This document shows, piece by piece, positions 4,628 to 18,695 of a stretch of 19,212 nt of DNA. This stretch comes from Bacteriovoracaceae bacterium (GTDB lineage: Bacteria > Bdellovibrionota > Bacteriovoracia > Bacteriovoracales > Bacteriovoracaceae), in contig JBMYPC010000056.1 of NCBI GenBank assembly GCA_049599895.1, forward strand, positions 1 through 19,212, in the 5' to 3' direction. Numbering within the stretch: the stretch's first letter is position 1; each line of letters starts with the position of its first letter. The notes under the pieces are model-generated. The model saw only the letters and a program-made list of their open reading frames with translations. It was not told the origin of the DNA and did not search any database. A program made the translations under genes and the position numbers.

Positions 4628-4718
4628 AAGATCTCATTCTAGCCTTTCAAGGGCTCGAAATTATTAGTGCCTAAGCAGTGGTATTCAAGTCTGACTAAAC
4701 CTTTTGGCATTTTCCCCG

Positions 4719-4742
4719 AACAGGACTTCATGAAGTCCTGTT
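4719..4742. terminator. 24-bp perfect palindrome; possible terminator of the par/lemA/TPM transcript or a protein-binding site
   Basis: AACAGGACTTCATGAAGTCCTGTT is self-complementary and is followed by the T-rich ATAAATTTCTTTT. It is 91 bp downstream of the TPM stop. Confidence 0.5.
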
Positions 4743-5022
4743 ATAAATTTCTTTTACCATTTTTCGTTTTAATCGTTTCATTCGCATACTCTAATAATGT
4801 TCTCAATGGAATCGGCTATGACAATGAGAACGATCTTTAATTATGTGACGGAAAAGAATTGGCCTTATATTTTAAGGTTCGACTTAAAGAGTCACTTAAA
4901 TAATACCTTTGATGCTCTGCGGTTTTGGTAAGAAATAACGCGTATGAGCATTTCTTTCTTCAGTCTAGCTCGATGAATGAGAATTACTTAGGGAGCGCGA
5001 TGCGTTTTTGGTTAGATTCAGC

Positions 5023-5051
5023 TTGACTGTTTCACCCCCTAAGTCTAGAAA
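5023..5051 (+). promoter_or_regulatory. Putative sigma70-type promoter of the atp operon
   Basis: TTGACT(5023-5028)-N17-TAGAAA(5046-5051); SD GAGG(5084-5087) 8 nt before ATG 5096. Confidence 0.4.
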
Positions 5052-5095
5052 TATGAAGCTATTCCTTTAAAAATTAAGCGATTGAGGCACATGAG

Positions 5096-8203: not shown

Positions 8204-9076
8204 ATGGCAAATATTAAAGATTTAAAAAAGAAGATTAAGACTACGAAAAGTACTCTTAAGATTACAACAGCGATGAAGCTTGTTTCCGCTGCGAAGATGG
8301 CCAAGGCCCAAGCAGCGATCGTTGGAACAAGACCATACGCCAATGAGCTTGAAGATTCGATTAAAACGATTTCAGCTCTTGCCCGTAATTATTCTCATTC
8401 TTTTTTAGAAAGTAATGATTCTGATAAAACAGTGGTTCTTGTCATCTCTGCAAATAAAGGTCTTTGTGGTGGGTATAACTCACAGCTCGCAAAGAAAGTT
8501 CTTACTGATCTTGGTTCAGTTGATCACCTTGAAAACTATGAATTTCATTTCATTGGGAAAAAGGTGAAAGACGCTCTTAAATCAACAGAGATCCAAGGTG
8601 ATCTTGTTGAATTTGAAAAGAACGAACCAACTTATGAAGAAATCAATAAAATTGCAGTTGAGCTCAGCGAGCGATTCTTAAATGGTGAAGTTGGAAAAGT
8701 CTTAGTGGCTTATAACATTTTCAACTCAGCCATTAGTTTCACTCCAACCATTAAACAAGTTCTTCCCTTAAGCCTTGATCAAAGTGCTGCTGAAGAACTT
8801 AAAGAAAAACATCCATTTGATTTTAAATATGATCCAAGTGCAAGTGAGATTCTCGATACATTAATTCCTGAAACTTACTCAACTTCGATCTATACAAGTG
8901 TTCTCGATGCTGCGGCAGCTGAGCACGGGTCAAGAATGACAGCAATGGATAATGCTGTTGGAAATTGTAAGGACGCGATTCGTTCATTAACATTACAAAT
9001 GAACAAGGCAAGACAGGCAGCGATTACAACTGAGCTTATTGAAGTTGTATCTGGTGCTGAGTCTCTTAACGGTTAG
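8204..9076 (+). CDS. atpG: ATP synthase F1 subunit gamma
   Basis: KITTAMKLVSAAK, NKGLCGGYN, EHGSRMTAMDNA and NKARQAAITTELIEVVSGA. Confidence 0.99.
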   Translation: MANIKDLKKKIKTTKSTLKITTAMKLVSAAKMAKAQAAIVGTRPYANELEDSIKTISALARNYSHSFLESNDSDKTVVLVISANKGLCGGYNSQLAKKVLTDLGSVDHLENYEFHFIGKKVKDALKSTEIQGDLVEFEKNEPTYEEINKIAVELSERFLNGEVGKVLVAYNIFNSAISFTPTIKQVLPLSLDQSAAEELKEKHPFDFKYDPSASEILDTLIPETYSTSIYTSVLDAAAAEHGSRMTAMDNAVGNCKDAIRSLTLQMNKARQAAITTELIEVVSGAESLNG

Positions 9077-9081
9077 TAGAG

Positions 9082-9138
9082 CGAAACCGGTTTGAGGTTT
9101 CGGCGTCGCAGACGACCAGCAAGCGTCAGCGCGCGGCC
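9082..9138 (+). repeat. Structured GC-rich dispersed element, copy A (atpG-atpD spacer)
   Basis: Hairpin CGAAACC-N7-GGTTTCG(9082-9102) leads into core GGCGTCGCAGACGACCAGCAAGCGTCAGCGCGCGGCC(9102-9138), which is 30/37 identical without gaps to the reverse complement of 16756-16792. Confidence 0.8.
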
Positions 9139-9204
9139 GATGAGAAGATTAGTTAAGAAAGTTTGCTGAATATATTTGAATTAGGAATTAAGTCGATAGA
9201 CTAA

Positions 9205-10635
<1,431 letters not shown>

Positions 10636-11227: not shown

Positions 11228-13576
11228 ATGTTCAGGACTTTATGGTTGCTAGCAATAGTTGGCTGCACATTTCATTCAACACCATTAAAAGCCCCAAAGA
11301 TTTTATTCTTTGGCGATACGATTATTTCTGAAAGCTTAAGTCTTGAAACTGGAAAGAAGATTGTTAAAAGCTTCTTTAATAAGTTTGAATCAACATTACA
11401 CTCCCCAAGTATTATTGATGATGAAGCTAGTGAAATAGAAGTCACTTTATCAAATACTGTTTCGAGTATTGAAACTAAAAAAATTCTTGTTGGAAATGAA
11501 AGGCAAATTAAAGAAGTAAAGCTTAGAGAAGTTCCAAAGAGCAAAACTAAAAAAAGAAGCTTTAAAAATTTTAAATCAAGTTATAAAGAGATTGCTCAGT
11601 ACTGGCCAACTCAAAATGAAAATCCTCTCGCTAAGAGTGCTATCCAAATTAACTTTCAAAAGCTCAAGATCGCAAAACCCGTAAGAGTCGCTAAAAATAC
11701 TAATAAGGCAATTGAAGACAGCTTTAAAAAGCTAGAGGCCTTAAGCAAAGTGGTTGATGTAAAAGTCATTAAAGAAGATGAGATGAAAGCTCTTCCTTTT
11801 GAAGAGCAATTAGTGAATGCTGGACCTCAAAGAAGAGACATCAGTCTTTCAAATTCAGAAGTCTTAGAAATTCAAAACCTTGCTTATAAAAAGTTATCAG
11901 TGCCGAATATCCAATTGCTTGCTTCGCTCATTGATATGAATGAGTTCAAAACAAGATTAATGGCATATAAAGATAGCCCTGCCCCAATTAAGCCTGATCA
12001 GAAACTCATTGATCAAAGCCTGGCTGCTATTGAACCTCAAAAAGGGAAAGAGGTGGTTAAAAATGGTGAGGCCCTTGTTGAAGATGAGATTACAGTTAAA
12101 AAATCAGCAGTTCAAAAAAATGATAATCCCGATAAGAAAATTGGGAAGACATCTTTAATTCACCGTCTTGCAAGCAATCCAGTAAAGCCTATTCCTAAAA
12201 AAGAGCCGGTCATTGGTAGTGATGAGATGGTGTTTTTTGATGTTGAAAAACCAAGCAAGAGTAAAGTCGAGGAGATGGTTGAAAAGGCTTCGATTATTTC
12301 TTCTGCCGTGGAACAGGCTATTCAAAGAGAAATGAAAACTAATCCGGTGATTGCTTACAATAATGCTAGTCCAGCGGCAATGATGAAATTATTTGCAAAG
12401 CAATCTGATAATGAAACAGTTCTTAATAAGAGGGATAACGGTAAAACGAATTTAAAGATTACTCCAAGAGTGATTAACATCTCTAATGGTTCAAATTCTG
12501 ATCTTCGAAATTTTGATGTTCAATCTCTTTATAATAGTAATGAGATTTTTACTGATGATGGAACAGGTCGAATTCAAGCATCATTTAAGCTTAATAATAT
12601 TAACAGTACTTACTCAGGTGTTCTTCTTCAAAGAGACGTGGTGAGAACAAGATTTAATGTTCCACTTGGTGAAGAAGTGAATGAATTTGAAATACCAGTT
12701 CTTTCTGTTGATGGTTTTAGAAGTTTCTTTGAAAAGAACCCTATAAGTAGTTGGGGTGGTTTTCTTTTTGTTCATCTTGATGATGGAGTTGAATCAATTG
12801 ATATTGATAATGACTACGCTGAAGTTTTTTATTTTGATTCAAATTATAAACAAGTTAAAGAATCTGAGCGCTATGATTATATACTTTTTGCTGGAGTTCG
12901 TTCTGGAAATACGGTTCTTCGTTCTTTAGGTCGAAGTGGAGAAATTTCTGAACAAATTATATTTATTTCATTGGATGAAGTGAGTTTTGCTGTGACTGAG
13001 ACAAAAGCATCGAACAAGGTGAAGCTTGAACTCTATGAAGAAGGTTCACTTGGTAAAACCTCAGCTCTTAATCTTGATGAGGACAGTCTTGGGTATTTTA
13101 ATCTGAAAACCGATGTTAAGAAGCTAGGTCTGAATACATTTGAAGTTGAAGTCCCTCAAAAAAGTTTAACAATGAAGCCATATTTTGAAGTCAAAACCGA
13201 TTCGGATTTCTTCATCGTCGGTCAAAACGGAAATGGAAAAATCACTCTTCCAAGTATGGATAATCTAAACCTTGTTCTTGATAACGTGAACCTTAGAGAA
13301 ATGAACGGCAGTTGTATTGTTCAAGGAAATTCTGAAAAACCAATTGAAGCTATTGAGTTTGAAGGCCATGTGGATAAAGGCTCGATGCCAACAGAAATAT
13401 TCTATCTCAATGATAAAGGCGAATTTAATAGTGATGTTGATGGAGTTGTGACTCGCTTTTATGTGCTTGGAAGCTATCAAGGAACACTTTATTTGAAAGT
13501 AACCTACACAGACAATTCAGTTGATCTTATTCGAAGTTATTGCTCTTCAGGCACTTATTTGATCGAAAACCTGTAA
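11228..13576 (+). CDS. Hypothetical exported protein, possibly a lipoprotein, with a charged N-terminal half and a beta-rich C-terminal half
   Basis: 782-aa ORF with codon usage like its neighbours and a hydrophobic N-terminus ending IVGC (Cys13). No family motif was recognised. Confidence 0.75.
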   Translation: MFRTLWLLAIVGCTFHSTPLKAPKILFFGDTIISESLSLETGKKIVKSFFNKFESTLHSPSIIDDEASEIEVTLSNTVSSIETKKILVGNERQIKEVKLREVPKSKTKKRSFKNFKSSYKEIAQYWPTQNENPLAKSAIQINFQKLKIAKPVRVAKNTNKAIEDSFKKLEALSKVVDVKVIKEDEMKALPFEEQLVNAGPQRRDISLSNSEVLEIQNLAYKKLSVPNIQLLASLIDMNEFKTRLMAYKDSPAPIKPDQKLIDQSLAAIEPQKGKEVVKNGEALVEDEITVKKSAVQKNDNPDKKIGKTSLIHRLASNPVKPIPKKEPVIGSDEMVFFDVEKPSKSKVEEMVEKASIISSAVEQAIQREMKTNPVIAYNNASPAAMMKLFAKQSDNETVLNKRDNGKTNLKITPRVINISNGSNSDLRNFDVQSLYNSNEIFTDDGTGRIQASFKLNNINSTYSGVLLQRDVVRTRFNVPLGEEVNEFEIPVLSVDGFRSFFEKNPISSWGGFLFVHLDDGVESIDIDNDYAEVFYFDSNYKQVKESERYDYILFAGVRSGNTVLRSLGRSGEISEQIIFISLDEVSFAVTETKASNKVKLELYEEGSLGKTSALNLDEDSLGYFNLKTDVKKLGLNTFEVEVPQKSLTMKPYFEVKTDSDFFIVGQNGNGKITLPSMDNLNLVLDNVNLREMNGSCIVQGNSEKPIEAIEFEGHVDKGSMPTEIFYLNDKGEFNSDVDGVVTRFYVLGSYQGTLYLKVTYTDNSVDLIRSYCSSGTYLIENL

Positions 13577-13662: not shown

Positions 13663-15480
13663 ATGAAAGCTATTACACGTCTGGCTTCGCTGGCTTTATT
13701 TATTCTTTTAGTTGGTTGTTCTGAAAGATCTCTTGAAATGAATCTCTATAAATCTCATGCTCTTCATGGAGAAGATGAGTCGATTGAAATTTTAAGTAAC
13801 AATGAAGATATTGTTCCAAATAAGATTACAGATGCTGTCGCAATGATTATTGATAAAGGCAATGTTGAAATATATGAAAACTATGCGATTGTTAAACCTT
13901 CTCAAAAACTAGAAAATCTAGATTGGAGCGAGAAACTAAAAAACAAGTATGACTATGGATATTGTACATCATTTAAGACAGCGTCAAATCTTATCACTAC
14001 GGCCAGTCATTGTGTGAGTAGTGGCGATAACAAAAAAGAAATAAAAAAAGATGCAAAAGACTTTTGTGAAGAAAACTATTTTATCTTTGGTTTTAATTCA
14101 AGAAACATTGAAGTTTTAGAAGATGGCAAGGCAAAAGTTTCGCTCGCAAGAGTTCAAGAATGTGATGAGGTTCTTTTTATCAATGAAGCCTCCAATGAAG
14201 ACTTTGCAATTATTCAGGCTTCAAATTTAGGAGGTATTCCAGATCTAAAGTTTTCAGCTACGATCCCTGAGATTGGCGATAGAATTTACAAAGTTGGTCA
14301 CAGTTATGGAACAATCCAAAGGTTCTCAGAGGGTAAAGTTTCAGTGCCAGCTACTGATAACAGCCGAAAAACAGAGGGACGGCCACTACTTGCGACAAAC
14401 CTTGATACCTTAGCGGGTGATTCAGGGTCACCGGTATTAAATTCTGATAATGAAGTTGTTGGAATCCATATCAATGTTTCAGCCTATTCATATTCACAGA
14501 AGTTAAAGCTTCATAAGGAGGATGGCTCTGTCGTTGAGTTTTTTCCAAAGCTAAATGATCAAAGAGGCCACAACAATCTATTGCGCACTGATGTTTTAGT
14601 TAGGCCAATTCATCGCTCGCTTGAAAATAGTAATTTTTTTGAAAGCTATTCCTCTGAAAATTTGATGAATGTTTTACGTATGGGAACTCCAAGTGATTTT
14701 TCTGTTCTGTATAGCTTAGACGTTGCTATTAATTATTTAAGTATTATTTATAGGAATGATAGTTTTAATGCTAGGCAATTCATTCAAAGACTTGATGGTA
14801 AAACTCTCGAGAGAGTTTATTTAGATTTACTTTGGTTGGGAGATATTGATTCAATTATAAATTTCGAAACTGAGTTTCTAAATTTTGAAGAATTGTCTGT
14901 GTCAAAAAAGGTCTACGCAATATCAAGTGGTCTAAATGAGGAAGTGGAAAAGCATCTACTGAGCCGACTTACGACTTTTGAGAAGCTTCAACTTTTTTGG
15001 TACTCACAAGAATTTAAAATCTATACTGCATTTGAAAGAATCCTTGCTAACGATCATGAGCTTGCGAATTATTCAACGATTAGCAGAAAGGCATTAAAAG
15101 AAAAAGTTTACAATACGATATTTAATATCGGTCAATTTGGGCTAGTCAAAGATGGGTTATTTAAGACTACTGCTCTTAGCAATATTGAGCTTAAGATATA
15201 TTTTAAAGTCGTTCATGCTGATATAATCAGTGAGGATGAAAATGGAATCCTTTTTTCTAGAGAAGTGTTTTCACCAAAGAAGCTAAGATTAAAATATAAA
15301 TCGAAAGAGGGTATAAGAAAAGTTGTTTACAAGTCTGAAAAAGATATCGTGAGAGCGTTATTCAGTTGGGGTGTTGATCTTAAATATACTCCATCGCCTT
15401 CTATTTTTGAAACAATTGTGAGCACGGAAGCATTTATCGTCGATATTTCTGATTCGATTTTTACAGATCTAAGTTTCTAA
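13663..15480 (+). CDS. Lipoprotein trypsin-like (clan PA/S1) serine protease with unknown C-terminal domain
   Basis: Lipobox LVGC (Cys19); catalytic triad motifs TTASHC, EDFAII and AGDSGSPV..VVGIH; about 300 further residues without a recognised motif. Confidence 0.88.
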   Translation: MKAITRLASLALFILLVGCSERSLEMNLYKSHALHGEDESIEILSNNEDIVPNKITDAVAMIIDKGNVEIYENYAIVKPSQKLENLDWSEKLKNKYDYGYCTSFKTASNLITTASHCVSSGDNKKEIKKDAKDFCEENYFIFGFNSRNIEVLEDGKAKVSLARVQECDEVLFINEASNEDFAIIQASNLGGIPDLKFSATIPEIGDRIYKVGHSYGTIQRFSEGKVSVPATDNSRKTEGRPLLATNLDTLAGDSGSPVLNSDNEVVGIHINVSAYSYSQKLKLHKEDGSVVEFFPKLNDQRGHNNLLRTDVLVRPIHRSLENSNFFESYSSENLMNVLRMGTPSDFSVLYSLDVAINYLSIIYRNDSFNARQFIQRLDGKTLERVYLDLLWLGDIDSIINFETEFLNFEELSVSKKVYAISSGLNEEVEKHLLSRLTTFEKLQLFWYSQEFKIYTAFERILANDHELANYSTISRKALKEKVYNTIFNIGQFGLVKDGLFKTTALSNIELKIYFKVVHADIISEDENGILFSREVFSPKKLRLKYKSKEGIRKVVYKSEKDIVRALFSWGVDLKYTPSPSIFETIVSTEAFIVDISDSIFTDLSF

Positions 15481-16630
15481 AAATGCTTAAGGTTCTTCGG
15501 TATCCATATGAAACAAGTTCCGCACTCTTCTGCGGATGAAGAGAAAAACTATTTCTTAAAAAGACTCGATAGTTTGAATGGGTGGGGTATATATCAATAA
15601 GTTTAACGTTTGATTTATAGTTAAGCTTATTTTCAACGATATTAATTAATTTCTTTCTATGCTCTTCATCGAATTTATTTTCTTTGCAGTAAATATTAAT
15701 AGTATCGATGAGGTCTTTAGTTTGAAGAATTCGCGATCTTGAGGATTGAATCTTTCTTTCAATCATTAAATAGATTGCTTGGACACAAATTGCAGGAAGT
15801 CCGTAATGAATCAAACTGCCGATTTCATCATGAAAGTGATAAGGCGTGTGAGTCCATGAGCTAATAATATAGTCGCACTGATTATCAATTGCCACGTGAG
15901 TTGAAAGTGTATCTCTAATTTCACCATCAAAATAATAATCAATTTTTCCATTATCAGGATTCTTAATCGGATATGGCGAATAAAATGGTGGAACCGCAGT
16001 TGAAGCTGCAATGGCATCAGACATGCTTACGCCTGTTACATATTTCACCGTGGGATCAAGATTAAATGAGGGAAGAACATATTTTCCAAAGACTGATTTT
16101 TGAGAATGATCCAATTGGCTGGCGACAATAAAAAGATCTGCTTCGAATGATTTAAAGTCAGTATCTGATAAAATATTTTTTTCTATGTAATCGTGAAGGC
16201 CCTTTGTGGAGAAAAAACCAGCAAACTTATTAAGGGGCTTTAAAAGCGATTTAATGAGAAAAGGAAAACTCTCAAGTGGATCATAGATATCGGCTTTTGG
16301 AGGTCTCCTAAGGGGAGATTTAAGGCTTAGAATGTCTTTGTAGGTAATGGGGGGAAGTTTTGCATTCTTTCTATCAACATTTGATTCGATGATATCAAGA
16401 GGCCCGTAACCAGCAGCAAAGAGAAGTGAGATAAGACTTCCGGCGCTGGATCCAACATAGGTTGAGATCTCAAGGTCCTTTTTATCTCCAAAATTGTTTT
16501 TAAGATGAAAACCAAGCTCTTCAAGAGCGAGTGCGACCCCAAGATGCCATGCAGCAGCCTTTACGACGCCACCAGACAAAACCAGTGCGCCCTTTTTGTT
16601 TTTGAAACTTGTGAGATCCACCTTACCCAT
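15461..16630 (-). CDS. Patatin-like phospholipase family protein
   Basis: LVLSGGVVKAAAWHLGV (oxyanion loop), YVGSSAGS (nucleophile GxSxG), AIAASTAVPPFYSP and YFDGEI (catalytic Asp). Confidence 0.9.
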   Translation of the reverse strand: MGKVDLTSFKNKKGALVLSGGVVKAAAWHLGVALALEELGFHLKNNFGDKKDLEISTYVGSSAGSLISLLFAAGYGPLDIIESNVDRKNAKLPPITYKDILSLKSPLRRPPKADIYDPLESFPFLIKSLLKPLNKFAGFFSTKGLHDYIEKNILSDTDFKSFEADLFIVASQLDHSQKSVFGKYVLPSFNLDPTVKYVTGVSMSDAIAASTAVPPFYSPYPIKNPDNGKIDYYFDGEIRDTLSTHVAIDNQCDYIISSWTHTPYHFHDEIGSLIHYGLPAICVQAIYLMIERKIQSSRSRILQTKDLIDTINIYCKENKFDEEHRKKLINIVENKLNYKSNVKLIDIYPTHSNYRVFLRNSFSLHPQKSAELVSYGYRRTLSIFRNLDL

Positions 16631-16755
16631 AAAAATAACCTATTAGGGAGTATATACCTTTGGGGATGGATAATTCTAGTTTTTACGATTTAAGGAGGGA
16701 TTGTTGGTGCTTCGGTTGAAAGTTAGGATCAACTTTGACATTAATCACTTCAGAT

Positions 16756-16810
16756 GACCGGGCGCTGACGCTTCCTGGCCACCTGCGGCGCCTCAAGCCA
16801 GCGACTTGAG
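16756..16810 (-). repeat. Structured GC-rich dispersed element, copy B (between the divergent patatin and HTH genes)
   Basis: The minus strand reads CTCAAG-N7-CTTGAG and then core GGCGCCGCAGGTGGCCAGGAAGCGTCAGCGCCCGGTC; 30/37 identical to 9102-9138. Confidence 0.8.
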
Positions 16811-16820
16811 TATCCAAAAA

Positions 16821-16878: not shown

Positions 16879-17211
16879 ATGTCAGAAAATTGGGTATCCT
16901 TAGTTGAATATGTTCATCTAAAGAAAAGTTCCATCTCAACAGTGAGACGAAGAATCCGATCGGGGAAAATTCAGAGTAAACTTATTAAAGGGAAGTATTA
17001 CCTTCTTTTAAAAGATCAAGAAATCGATGCCGTTAGGCTTGAAAGTGAAAAAGAAATTTTAGAACTCAAGCTAGAAAATCATCGATTATTAAATAAGCTC
17101 AGACAAACTGAGCAAGAGAAGAATGACCTTGAAATGTTGATAGCTCTCTATGAAAAACAAAATCTCAAGAATGCCCAACATTCCGGTTTAGAACTGGAGA
17201 CTTTTAGATGA
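16879..17211 (+). CDS. Small DNA-binding protein: MerR/excisionase-like winged HTH plus C-terminal coiled coil
   Basis: WVSLVEYVHLKKSSISTVRRRIRSGKIQSKLIKGKYYL fits the MerR-like/HTH_17 pattern, followed by the heptad-like segment LELKLENHRLLNKLRQTEQEKNDLEMLIALYE. Confidence 0.75.
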   Translation: MSENWVSLVEYVHLKKSSISTVRRRIRSGKIQSKLIKGKYYLLLKDQEIDAVRLESEKEILELKLENHRLLNKLRQTEQEKNDLEMLIALYEKQNLKNAQHSGLELETFR

Positions 17212-18695
17212 ATGCCCGAATCAAATATCTTTTTCTCTTTTTTTTAATGGCCTTTACTGTTGCAACAACAACTCAGGCCAATCTTTATAAACATTCCTTT
17301 AGAAGATGTTTGTTACTTCCCATTCAAGATCAAGTGGGTGGCGCTATTGGCTTTGGTGTTTTTCAAGATGTTGAAAACTATCTGAAAAATAGTGATTGGT
17401 GTTTTTATAAACATAATTCTGAAATTCTTAATATCCTTTCAAACTATCGGAACAATCTTGATTCACATCTTGAAAATCCTGATGTTCTTAGTATTCTTGC
17501 GGATAAAATTAGGGCAGGTTCAATCATTCGTATTCGTTTAAAAAGAGAGCTTAAAAGAATTACTGTTGAGTTAAATATTCTTGCTGATAACGGAAAAGAT
17601 ATTCTCTTTCGAAATAAAGTGGCTGCCGAAAATGATCGCATCGAAGTTCTTTCCCAAACTGTAAAAAACTGGCTTGATATTTATAAAAACCAGATTCCTT
17701 ATGATGGTCGAGTGACAGGGGTTCTAGGAAACCAATTCACAATTGATATTGGAAAAAACTTTGGACTTTATCAAAATGCAAAGATCACGATTTTAAGACC
17801 AACAAAAAGAAAAAAACATCCTCTACTGAAAGAAGTCGTCTCATTTCAATCCGTCAAAATAGCTGAGGGACTAATTTTCCATGTTAATGAGTTTCAAGGG
17901 CATGGGAATGTAAAGGTTTATGAGGGAAAAAATAAAGTTGGTGTTAATGACTGGATTATAATTGATAAGCTTGATCAAAGCATGACAAAAAATGATGAAA
18001 AATTTCAAGATCCTAAAAAATACAGTTTTGGAAAGATTGGGAAGGTCGGAATAGGTCCTCTTTTTTCATCGGGGAGCGCCACTTGGAATAATGGGGGAGT
18101 TGAAACTCGTGAGATTTCAACACTTCTTTATGGCCTAAGTTTAAATGGAGAGCTTTGGTTAACTCGTGAATATATTGTGGGCTTAAGTATTGAAAAGTTA
18201 TTTGGAGGTTATGAAGAAGAACAAGGAACAATCATTTTAAACAGCAATGATGGTGATCCTCTTTTCACAAAACTCTATGCCGGATACAAATATCTTCCCA
18301 TGGGATTTTTCTACGGCCCGCAGGTTGATGGTTATATCGGCTATAAATCTAATAAGTATAACTTTTCCACATCAGATGGATTTACTTCTTACTCACTTTC
18401 AGGTCTTCTCGTTGGGGCAAAGGGAAATGTTCCTCTTCATAAGCTTGTTCGAATGTACCTTTTTATGGATTTTCTTATCACAAGTTCTTATTCTGAGGAC
18501 GGCTCACTTTATGGAGAGGAAGACTCAAGCTCAAACTATGAACTAGGGCTTGGGGTGAATTATATGTGGGAGCCGAAAATTGATATTGAAGGCTACTTTA
18601 AAATCAATTCAACTGAAGTAAAGTTTAGAAACCCTACAACAACTCTAACTACTAAAGAGACCAGTCTAGGGGTTAAGGCAAACTTTACTTTTTAA
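17208..18695 (+). CDS. Exported protein with periplasmic N-terminal domains and a C-terminal outer-membrane beta-barrel
   Basis: Signal peptide; middle segment GRVTGVLGNQFTIDIGKNFGL..AKITILR resembling FlgT C-terminal-type domains; alternating beta-strands with Gly and aromatic residues in the last ~220 aa; terminal LGVKANFTF (BAM-type Phe). ATGA overlap with the upstream gene. Confidence 0.75.
   Translation: MNARIKYLFLFFLMAFTVATTTQANLYKHSFRRCLLLPIQDQVGGAIGFGVFQDVENYLKNSDWCFYKHNSEILNILSNYRNNLDSHLENPDVLSILADKIRAGSIIRIRLKRELKRITVELNILADNGKDILFRNKVAAENDRIEVLSQTVKNWLDIYKNQIPYDGRVTGVLGNQFTIDIGKNFGLYQNAKITILRPTKRKKHPLLKEVVSFQSVKIAEGLIFHVNEFQGHGNVKVYEGKNKVGVNDWIIIDKLDQSMTKNDEKFQDPKKYSFGKIGKVGIGPLFSSGSATWNNGGVETREISTLLYGLSLNGELWLTREYIVGLSIEKLFGGYEEEQGTIILNSNDGDPLFTKLYAGYKYLPMGFFYGPQVDGYIGYKSNKYNFSTSDGFTSYSLSGLLVGAKGNVPLHKLVRMYLFMDFLITSSYSEDGSLYGEEDSSSNYELGLGVNYMWEPKIDIEGYFKINSTEVKFRNPTTTLTTKETSLGVKANFTF

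Follow-up and report, generated by a model that had tools for sequence, protein, structure and literature searches.

The closest described systems are the small intergenic repeats of bacteria. REP/BIME sequences and REPINs are short, GC-rich, hairpin-forming intergenic units that show covariation in their stems, are often found just after operon genes and combine into mosaics; in Escherichia coli, the REP sequences located in operons stabilise or process the upstream mRNA. Correia elements (CREE/NEMIS, from Neisseria) and other MITEs are non-coding units of about 100-150 bp with TA-rich duplicated targets, frequently placed beside stop codons or in promoters, co-transcribed, and with ends that can create promoter hexamers. 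BOX elements of Streptococcus pneumoniae are modular intergenic repeats of the boxA-boxB-boxC type; to our knowledge, they carry no gene of their own and have no known mobilising enzyme. In the literature on Bacteriovorax, Halobacteriovorax and Bdellovibrio, no description of such repeats was found.

The element analysed here was noticed as two copies in a window of 19,212 nt (the whole stretch of DNA under analysis, contig JBMYPC010000056.1 of a Bacteriovoracaceae bacterium), and it resembles these three groups but fits none of them cleanly. Like REP/BIME sequences and REPINs, it is short, GC-rich and intergenic, forms hairpins whose stems covary, is often placed just after operon genes and takes part in mosaics. 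Unlike them, it flanks no RAYT gene, forms no inverted doublets and has a probable target duplication, and its unit comprises three different hairpins and a tail instead of one palindrome. With Correia elements and MITEs it shares size, placement at stop codons and promoters and, probably, TA-rich duplicated targets, promoter-making ends and co-transcription, whereas the terminal inverted repeats of Correia elements and classical MITEs were not found and the duplication appears to be of 5 bp (NTATA) and not of TA. Of the traits by which a MITE is recognised, it is small, non-coding, multi-copy and dispersed, and has filled and empty sites with a suggestive duplication; terminal inverted repeats and a parent insertion sequence were looked for and not found. 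The fixed order of short hairpin boxes, the intergenic location and the lack of a gene of its own recall BOX, from which it differs in its unrelated sequences, in the phylum of the host, and in the flanking duplication and empty-site evidence obtained here. In our reading, it represents a new family of mobile repeats of the REP/BIME/MITE-like kind that mRNAs carry passively. On balance, the feature in the atp operon is probably a copy of a non-coding repeat of about 105-125 nt, inserted only in this lineage, and likely to be a non-autonomous mobile element that duplicates TA-rich pentamers. The observations that carry this reading are the census of copies, their covariation, the lineage-specific insertions, the filled and empty sites in a related genus and the ATATA-like flanks.

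The first copy lies between atpG and atpD, and the second on the opposite strand (Table 1), 121 nt upstream of and co-oriented with a patatin-like gene (15461-16630, - strand) and divergent from a small ORF (16879-17211, + strand). By direct reading, positions 9102-9138 and the reverse complement of 16756-16792 are identical at 30 of 37 ungapped positions, and all seven differences fall on proposed pairs, as the preliminary description of this DNA had stated. In hairpin 2, T/C together with A/G converts T-A into C-G, and in hairpin 3, C/G together with G/C converts C-G into G-C, both being double changes that preserve the pair; a single C/T change turns G-C into G.T, and A/G with C/T turns an A/C mismatch into G.T. 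The similarity between the two copies is far beyond chance. The hairpin that had been reported ahead of each copy, with unrelated stem letters, is indeed present in both. No terminator-like site was found at 9082-9138 or 16752-16815, and no T run follows hairpin 3.

Table 1. Coordinates of the two copies in the window, of their parts and neighbours, and of examples of composite units on other contigs (C) of the same genome.
Feature	Position	Strand	Remarks
atpG TAG stop codon	9074..9076	+	ORF 8204-9076, Pfam ATP-synt gamma
Whole inserted unit (copy 1), from atpG stop to atpD AAGGAG	9077..9202	+	126 nt; three hairpins and diverged tail ending ...GATAGACT; 3' boundary placed from the shortness of this spacer in other genera and from the consensus of the family, ...CGACT
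Hairpin 1, copy 1	9082..9102	+	CGAAACC / loop GGTTTGA / GGTTTCG
Hairpin 2, copy 1	9104..9114	+	CGTC / GCA (G-N-A loop) / GACG; three pairs firm
Hairpin 3, copy 1	9116..9136	+	CC-A-GC-AA-GC-GTCA-GC-GC-GC-GG; basal pairs, bulged A, covarying pair C9120-G9133, 2x2 internal loop AA/GC, apical GC stem, GNNA loop
Diverged 3' tail, copy 1	9137..9202	+	likeness to the family tail judged by eye only
atpD AAGGAG ribosome-binding site and ATG	9203..9213	+	intact 3' of the insertion; atpD start at 9211
Copy 2	16752..16815	-	covariance-model match, 69.8 bits
Hairpin 1, copy 2	16810-16792	-	CTCAAG(TC)...(GG)CTTGAG
Hairpin 2, copy 2	16790-16780	-	
Hairpin 3, copy 2	16778-16758	-	
Probable diverged 3' tail, copy 2	16700..16751	-	tcatctgaagtgattaatgtcaaagttgatcc...; by-eye comparison with family tails, end uncertain
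Composite unit	C16:24749-24917		
Composite unit	C148:5331-5502		
Composite unit	C33:8991-9159		
Composite unit	C79:12037-12203		
Composite unit	C163:6038-6204		
Composite unit	C7:43364-43471		

Some features of the window stand apart from the two copies. Upstream of its first atp gene, which encodes a b/b'-type subunit, there are 468 nt (4628-5095) with no ORF of 60 or more amino acids; the genes for the a and c subunits are absent from the window, which suggests two separate loci for the atp genes. Large ORFs of 782 and 495 amino acids, in 11228-13576 and 17208-18695, have no Pfam match at E up to 1e-5.

The two copies belong to a populous family. In the genome of origin (3.27 Mb in 266 contigs, 37.7% G+C), the 17-mer CCAGSAAGCGTCAGCGC occurs 38 times with up to two mismatches and 65 times with up to three, against 0 and 1 occurrences, respectively, of the reversed control. 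Iterated nhmmer yielded 45 full copies, and a covariance model made from their alignment gives 65 matches in this genome at E up to 0.01. Of these, 45 are full-length and simple; about ten, of ~107 nt or more, have other repeat modules nested between hairpins 1-2 and hairpin 3; the remaining ones are partial. Many intergenic copies with further covariation had been named beforehand as what would support a family, and the 65 matches agree with this. Nor is the element a named Rfam family: when the window in full was run through cmscan, neither copy was matched even with E up to 1, and the two weak matches, to snoRNA models, are located elsewhere.

By sequence, the element appears very narrow in its distribution. 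An exact 19-mer occurs in none of 40 relatives, a search of metagenome contigs with the element pattern gave no match, and among 185,579 species genomes the 20-mer AGSAAGCGTCAGCGCSCGGT has just 12 single matches, every one of them in an unrelated taxon of high G+C; we read these as chance. With the covariance model, copies are found in only five of 120 other genomes of the bacterial family: six and five in the congeneric G083 and G114, two in G044, and a single weak match each in G095 and G092. One locus of G114 (C2:789010-789272, L063) contains three copies in tandem, repeating every ~99 nt, an array not seen at the corresponding place in G083.

The evidence for structure comes from covariation. 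In a MAFFT alignment of the 45 copies, 89.5-89.9% of the cells are paired, compared with 33-46% when the 3' partners are slid by 1-3 columns, and double changes occupy 91-94 cells, versus 11-20 after sliding; in 500 shuffles the observed values of pairing and double changes were never reached. An alignment of 60 distinct rows that includes the copies of relatives, and which leans towards structure as it was fitted to the model, has 92.4% of its cells paired and double changes in 16 of 17 pairs. The clearest pair is the one in hairpin 3 that the first reading of the sequence had singled out (GC 25, CG 21, UA 5, GU 4, UG 2). For the tip of hairpin 3, the register proposed at the time, GCG-TCAG-CGC with an AA bulge, is to be revised: covariation favours GC-GNNA-GC with a 2x2 internal loop AA/GC. 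In three rows A-U replaces G-C at the alternative pair, in one copy the internal loop is flipped (GC opposite AA), and orthologous copies of G083 and G114 differ precisely there, G-C against A-U. Only about one copy in two has the outermost positions of hairpin 2 paired, and that pair is probably not real. The loops follow G-N-A in hairpin 2 and G-N-N-A in hairpin 3, and loop and internal-loop letters are conserved while the stems covary. G.U pairs outnumber A.C mismatches by 27 to 13 in the covarying pairs and, when every pair is counted, by 66 to 40; pairing is thus best on the strand as given. The folding energies of single sequences (z of -0.9 and -0.3 for the element strand, -1.6 and -0.2 for the opposite one) are no better than those of shuffles, and the support for structure therefore comes from covariation and not from thermodynamics.

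Orthologous copies allow the same question to be followed between two genomes. The copy at G083 C4:333847 and G114 C1:238488 (L078, L075) begins on the stop codon of a gene with a C-terminus resembling, to the eye, that of the ATP synthase c subunit (atpE), and is followed by an intrinsic terminator. Between the two genomes its 17 pairs show three compensatory changes, one one-sided change and no breaking change, with just two differences in 33 unpaired columns: the stems change faster than the loops and pairing is kept. A second orthologous pair is noisier, with four compensatory, two one-sided and three breaking changes. Selection acting on structure, as was first proposed, may be at work, but the pattern is also what the requirements of mobility, or copying from one DNA arm to the other, would produce, and the faster change of stems than of loops also fits such copying.

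The hairpins are only part of the repeat. The full unit measures ~105-125 nt and consists of the three hairpins and a tail of ~50 nt. Younger copies have ATATA or a near variant before hairpin 1 and ATATA again after the tail, which reads GGTGTTTCGAAGTTCCCTTACTTGAAATTTAAACCAGTACGACT or corresponds to a second subtype. The tail is present at 24 places, in 22 of them directly 3' of hairpin 3. Other hairpin modules are nested after hairpin 2 in ~16 copies, and the genome therefore holds a BIME-like mosaic of repeat modules; in the composite units, modules of 40-110 nt lie between hairpins 2 and 3 with constant order and orientation. There is no gene inside the unit, and a scan of one long copy for terminal inverted repeats gave internal hairpins only.

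Comparison with other genera shows that these units are insertions. The atpG-atpD spacer measures 134 nt in this genome and 6-28 nt in 29 of 29 other genera, where it comprises the stop codon, GGAG and a few bases before the ATG. The rpoA-rplQ spacer, which holds another copy, measures 128 nt against 0-34 nt in 26 of 29 other genera; in the remaining three (59-99 nt) the element was not seen in the spacers inspected. Of the 20 genera that share the S11-rpoA order, 18 have 20-51 nt between the two genes and the other two 80 and 104 nt, against 106 nt here. These comparisons define a unit of ~105-125 nt that arrived in this lineage, not a device conserved in the ATP synthase operon. The suggestion that it could tune the stoichiometry of the gamma and beta subunits is accordingly not supported, given its absence from the atpG-atpD spacer of all 29 other genera and the functionally unrelated genes that other copies adjoin.

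Filled and empty sites can be compared directly between G083 and G114, since three copies of the former are missing from the latter with both flanks aligning. At the cleanest site, the empty allele of G114 reads aatctCTATAATAATGT (in context, ...aatctCTATAATAATGTTCAAGGAG...ATG) and has a TATAAT -10-like box 18 nt after TTCACA, whereas the filled allele of G083 reads aatctCTATA[89 nt]CTATATACTAATGT (in context, ...aatctCTATA[89 nt]CTATATACTAATGTTCAAGGAG). The pentamer CTATA, which occurs once in the empty site, flanks the insertion on both sides, that is, a duplication of 5 bp. The other two sites are blurred by divergence; one is directly after a stop codon (aagTAA) and the other in a TACAAT-like box. 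In the genome of origin, the pentamers flanking 19 long copies, four of whose 3' boundaries were corrected by eye, are identical in eight cases and differ in 11, six of these at one position, and two of the eight identical pairs are non-consensus (CTATA/CTATA and AGATA/AGATA). The atp copy has no clear flanking duplication. Taken together, the one clean empty site and the pentamer statistics are suggestive, though not conclusive, of the duplication of a preferred NTATA target; alternatively, both terminal ATATA pentamers could be part of the element.

The genomic context of the copies was examined with a gene set obtained by crude ORF heuristics (3006 ORFs, 91% coding). The 55 simple and composite copies are distributed as 20 tandem sense, eight tandem antisense, 13 divergent, five convergent, seven at contig edges and two inside short, probably spurious, antisense ORFs, and the 28:13:5 ratio of tandem, divergent and convergent locations roughly tracks spacer length (55:31:14.5%). 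Fourteen copies start between -12 and +10 nt from the stop codon of a co-oriented upstream gene, and at least five incorporate that stop codon into the 5' arm of hairpin 1, as in gtc-TAA-aacc after S11 or tac-TGA-aaac after ClpP. Copies are found between S11 and RpoA, RpoA and L17, S12 and S7, L11 and L1, S19 and L22, IF-1 and S13, and AtpG and AtpD, and also next to S9, ClpP, DksA and FlgE; by our own tally, all eight copies located in operons for ribosomal proteins, RNA polymerase and ATP synthase have the sense orientation. The genes downstream of different copies are mutually unrelated. As to replication, the element strand is the locally G-rich one in 33 of 52 copies, a weak trend that is confounded with gene orientation.

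Six copies are concentrated within ~30 kb of the ribosomal-protein/rpoA cluster on contig C6 (~2.4-31.7 kb), which by our arithmetic amounts to a density of about one copy in 5 kb, where the genome as a whole has about one in 60 kb. Among them, the rpsL-rpsG copy (C6:13549-13616) has a unique hairpin 1 (GAAATAACCC/GGGTTATTTC) whose 5' arm is formed by the last rpsL codons and the stop (AAA TAA), and whose 3' arm looks as if matched to the gene end. The idea that hairpin 1 is built from the end of the neighbouring gene was not adopted, because only this S12 copy and the G083 copy after aagTAA have that appearance and most copies share a common hairpin 1 core.

These elements of context can be accommodated in a simple scheme of insertion. 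The repeat would enter TA-rich pentamers and duplicate its target, the candidate targets being -10-like boxes and the TAA or TAG stop codons of tightly packed operons, and such a preference would explain the 14 copies that abut stop codons. In spacers of 10-25 nt the TAA or TAG stop would be the TA-rich site itself, and an insertion between it and the ribosome-binding site would disrupt neither gene, as is seen at atpG-atpD. A TTGAAA hexamer in the tail, 16 nt before the 3' TATA, would, as far as the sequence indicates, rebuild a promoter whenever a -10 box was split. Copies in operons would be transcribed passively with the mRNA, their hairpins acting at most as a local decay barrier or processing site.

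Considered in this way, a false lead is removed, since the hairpins of the ATP synthase operon represent an insertion and not an ancient regulator. The filled and empty sites document a new family of miniature repeats in Bdellovibrio-like predators, one with a tolerance, or even a preference, for the operons that are tightest and most highly expressed. With unusually clean compensatory change between orthologues and no obvious moving enzyme, the family becomes a useful test case for the questions of how small hairpin repeats spread and whether their covariation reflects selection on RNA or copying of DNA arms. For annotators it carries a warning: covariation among repeat copies is insufficient, by itself, to call a regulatory RNA.

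The same hairpins might constitute a cis-acting RNA module selected by the host, bound by a protein or RNase or blocking 3' exonucleases, and thus stabilising or processing the mRNA of the upstream cistron. Its appeal comes from the sense orientation of 20 copies against eight in tandem locations, and of eight out of eight in the ribosomal-protein, rpoA and atp operons, from the conservation of loop letters alongside covarying stems, and from the record of the atpE-downstream orthologues. A purely selfish model has no need of a role for the transcribed strand, and the sense bias and the compensatory changes between orthologues hint at one; together with the excess of G.U over A.C, they argue for some role or constraint on that strand. 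We nevertheless regard a host-selected module as unlikely, given that the insertions are lineage-specific and missing from the matching spacers in 26-29 of 29 other genera, that the neighbouring genes are functionally unrelated and eight copies are antisense, that folding energies do not surpass those of shuffles and no T run follows the hairpins, and that compensatory change can arise without selection, by copying between arms.

A more speculative reading, in our opinion unlikely, would picture the repeat as a mobile cassette devoid of a transposase gene and of terminal inverted repeats that homes to -10 boxes and stop codons and, by means of its own -35 hexamer, restores the promoter that it splits. 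In the operons of highest expression (ribosomal proteins, RNA polymerase alpha and ATP synthase) it would have become fixed in the sense orientation as portable punctuation used by the host, at once an mRNA-stabilising or processing barrier and an internal promoter, and its stems would be kept paired by a copy-correcting mechanism that outpaces substitution.

How the proposed mobile repeat moves is a separate matter. A REP/REPIN-type unit would be mobilised as single-stranded DNA hairpins by a RAYT-like (Y1 HUH) enzyme, with hairpin 3 as the recognised structure. The genome does contain one RAYT-like gene (C53:3513-4088; L059:1468-2043), which scores 30.2 bits with PF01797, above the cut-off. 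G-N-A and G-N-N-A loops, such as those of the element, favour DNA mini-hairpins. Hairpin 3 begins with CTAG, CCAG, TCAG or TTAG, hairpin 2 often reads CGTC, and the AA/GC mismatch lies beside the apical stem. Cleavage of E. coli REP sequences by their RAYT depends on features that include the GTAG motif and, at the edge of the loop, the residues AA/GC (PMC3733652), and the YYAG start and the AA/GC mismatch of hairpin 3 recall these features, a resemblance we treat as a lead only. The tetranucleotide tag at one end of the REP palindrome (GTAG or CGTC) is described as unpaired (PMC3733652), and neither the YYAG nor the CGTC of our element is an unpaired terminal tag of this kind.

Against such a mechanism, which we hold to be quite unlikely here, the score of the gene with NF047646 is 63.6 bits, below the cut-off of 80, and the gene is flanked by a perfect 23-nt inverted repeat, AAAAGTGCCAGGTACTTTTTAGA, that belongs to a different hairpin family; the element matches on the same contig (1901-2006 and 16433-16496) do not flank it. 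RAYT-like genes are found in 68 of 120 genomes of the bacterial family, compared with five of 120 for the element, and G044 has two element copies with no RAYT-like match. None of the 65 matches in the genome forms an inverted doublet, all matches on the same contig sharing their orientation except the two of the window, 7.6 kb apart, and pentamer duplications are not expected from HUH transposition. Of the REP/MITE-like nature proposed in the preliminary description, then, the dispersed, intergenic and covarying family stands, while the suggested link to a RAYT/IS200-605 gene flanked by copies and the cis-regulatory motif for subunit stoichiometry are not supported. Other movers were sought in the same 266 contigs. 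The search revealed no IS110-type gene. The fragments of rve and DDE_Tnp_1 transposases at contig ends are not accompanied by element ends, and there is no element match on their contigs (C80, C112, C263, C259, C75). No parent insertion sequence with matching ends was found in the assembly, although a parent could be unassembled, as could the mover.

A family of trans-acting sRNA genes, each with its own TATACT promoter just before hairpin 1, would agree with the presence of TATACT immediately 5' of hairpin 1 in many copies and with the 13 copies in divergent promoter regions, but was rejected as highly improbable for want of a consistent -35 upstream of TATACT, as judged by eye, and of a terminator after hairpin 3, the more so as a start ~7 nt after TATACT would fall inside hairpin 1, the operon copies have no TATACT, and the TATA is better explained as a duplicated target.

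The hairpins that flank the RAYT-like gene form a second repeat family in this genome, with the general formula AAAAGTGTCC-NNN-GGACACTTTT, also written AAAAGTG(T)CC...GGACACTTTT, and ~30 loci. These hairpins (AAAAGTGCC) are often nested in longer stems, and several of them are located right after the 3' ends of tRNAs.
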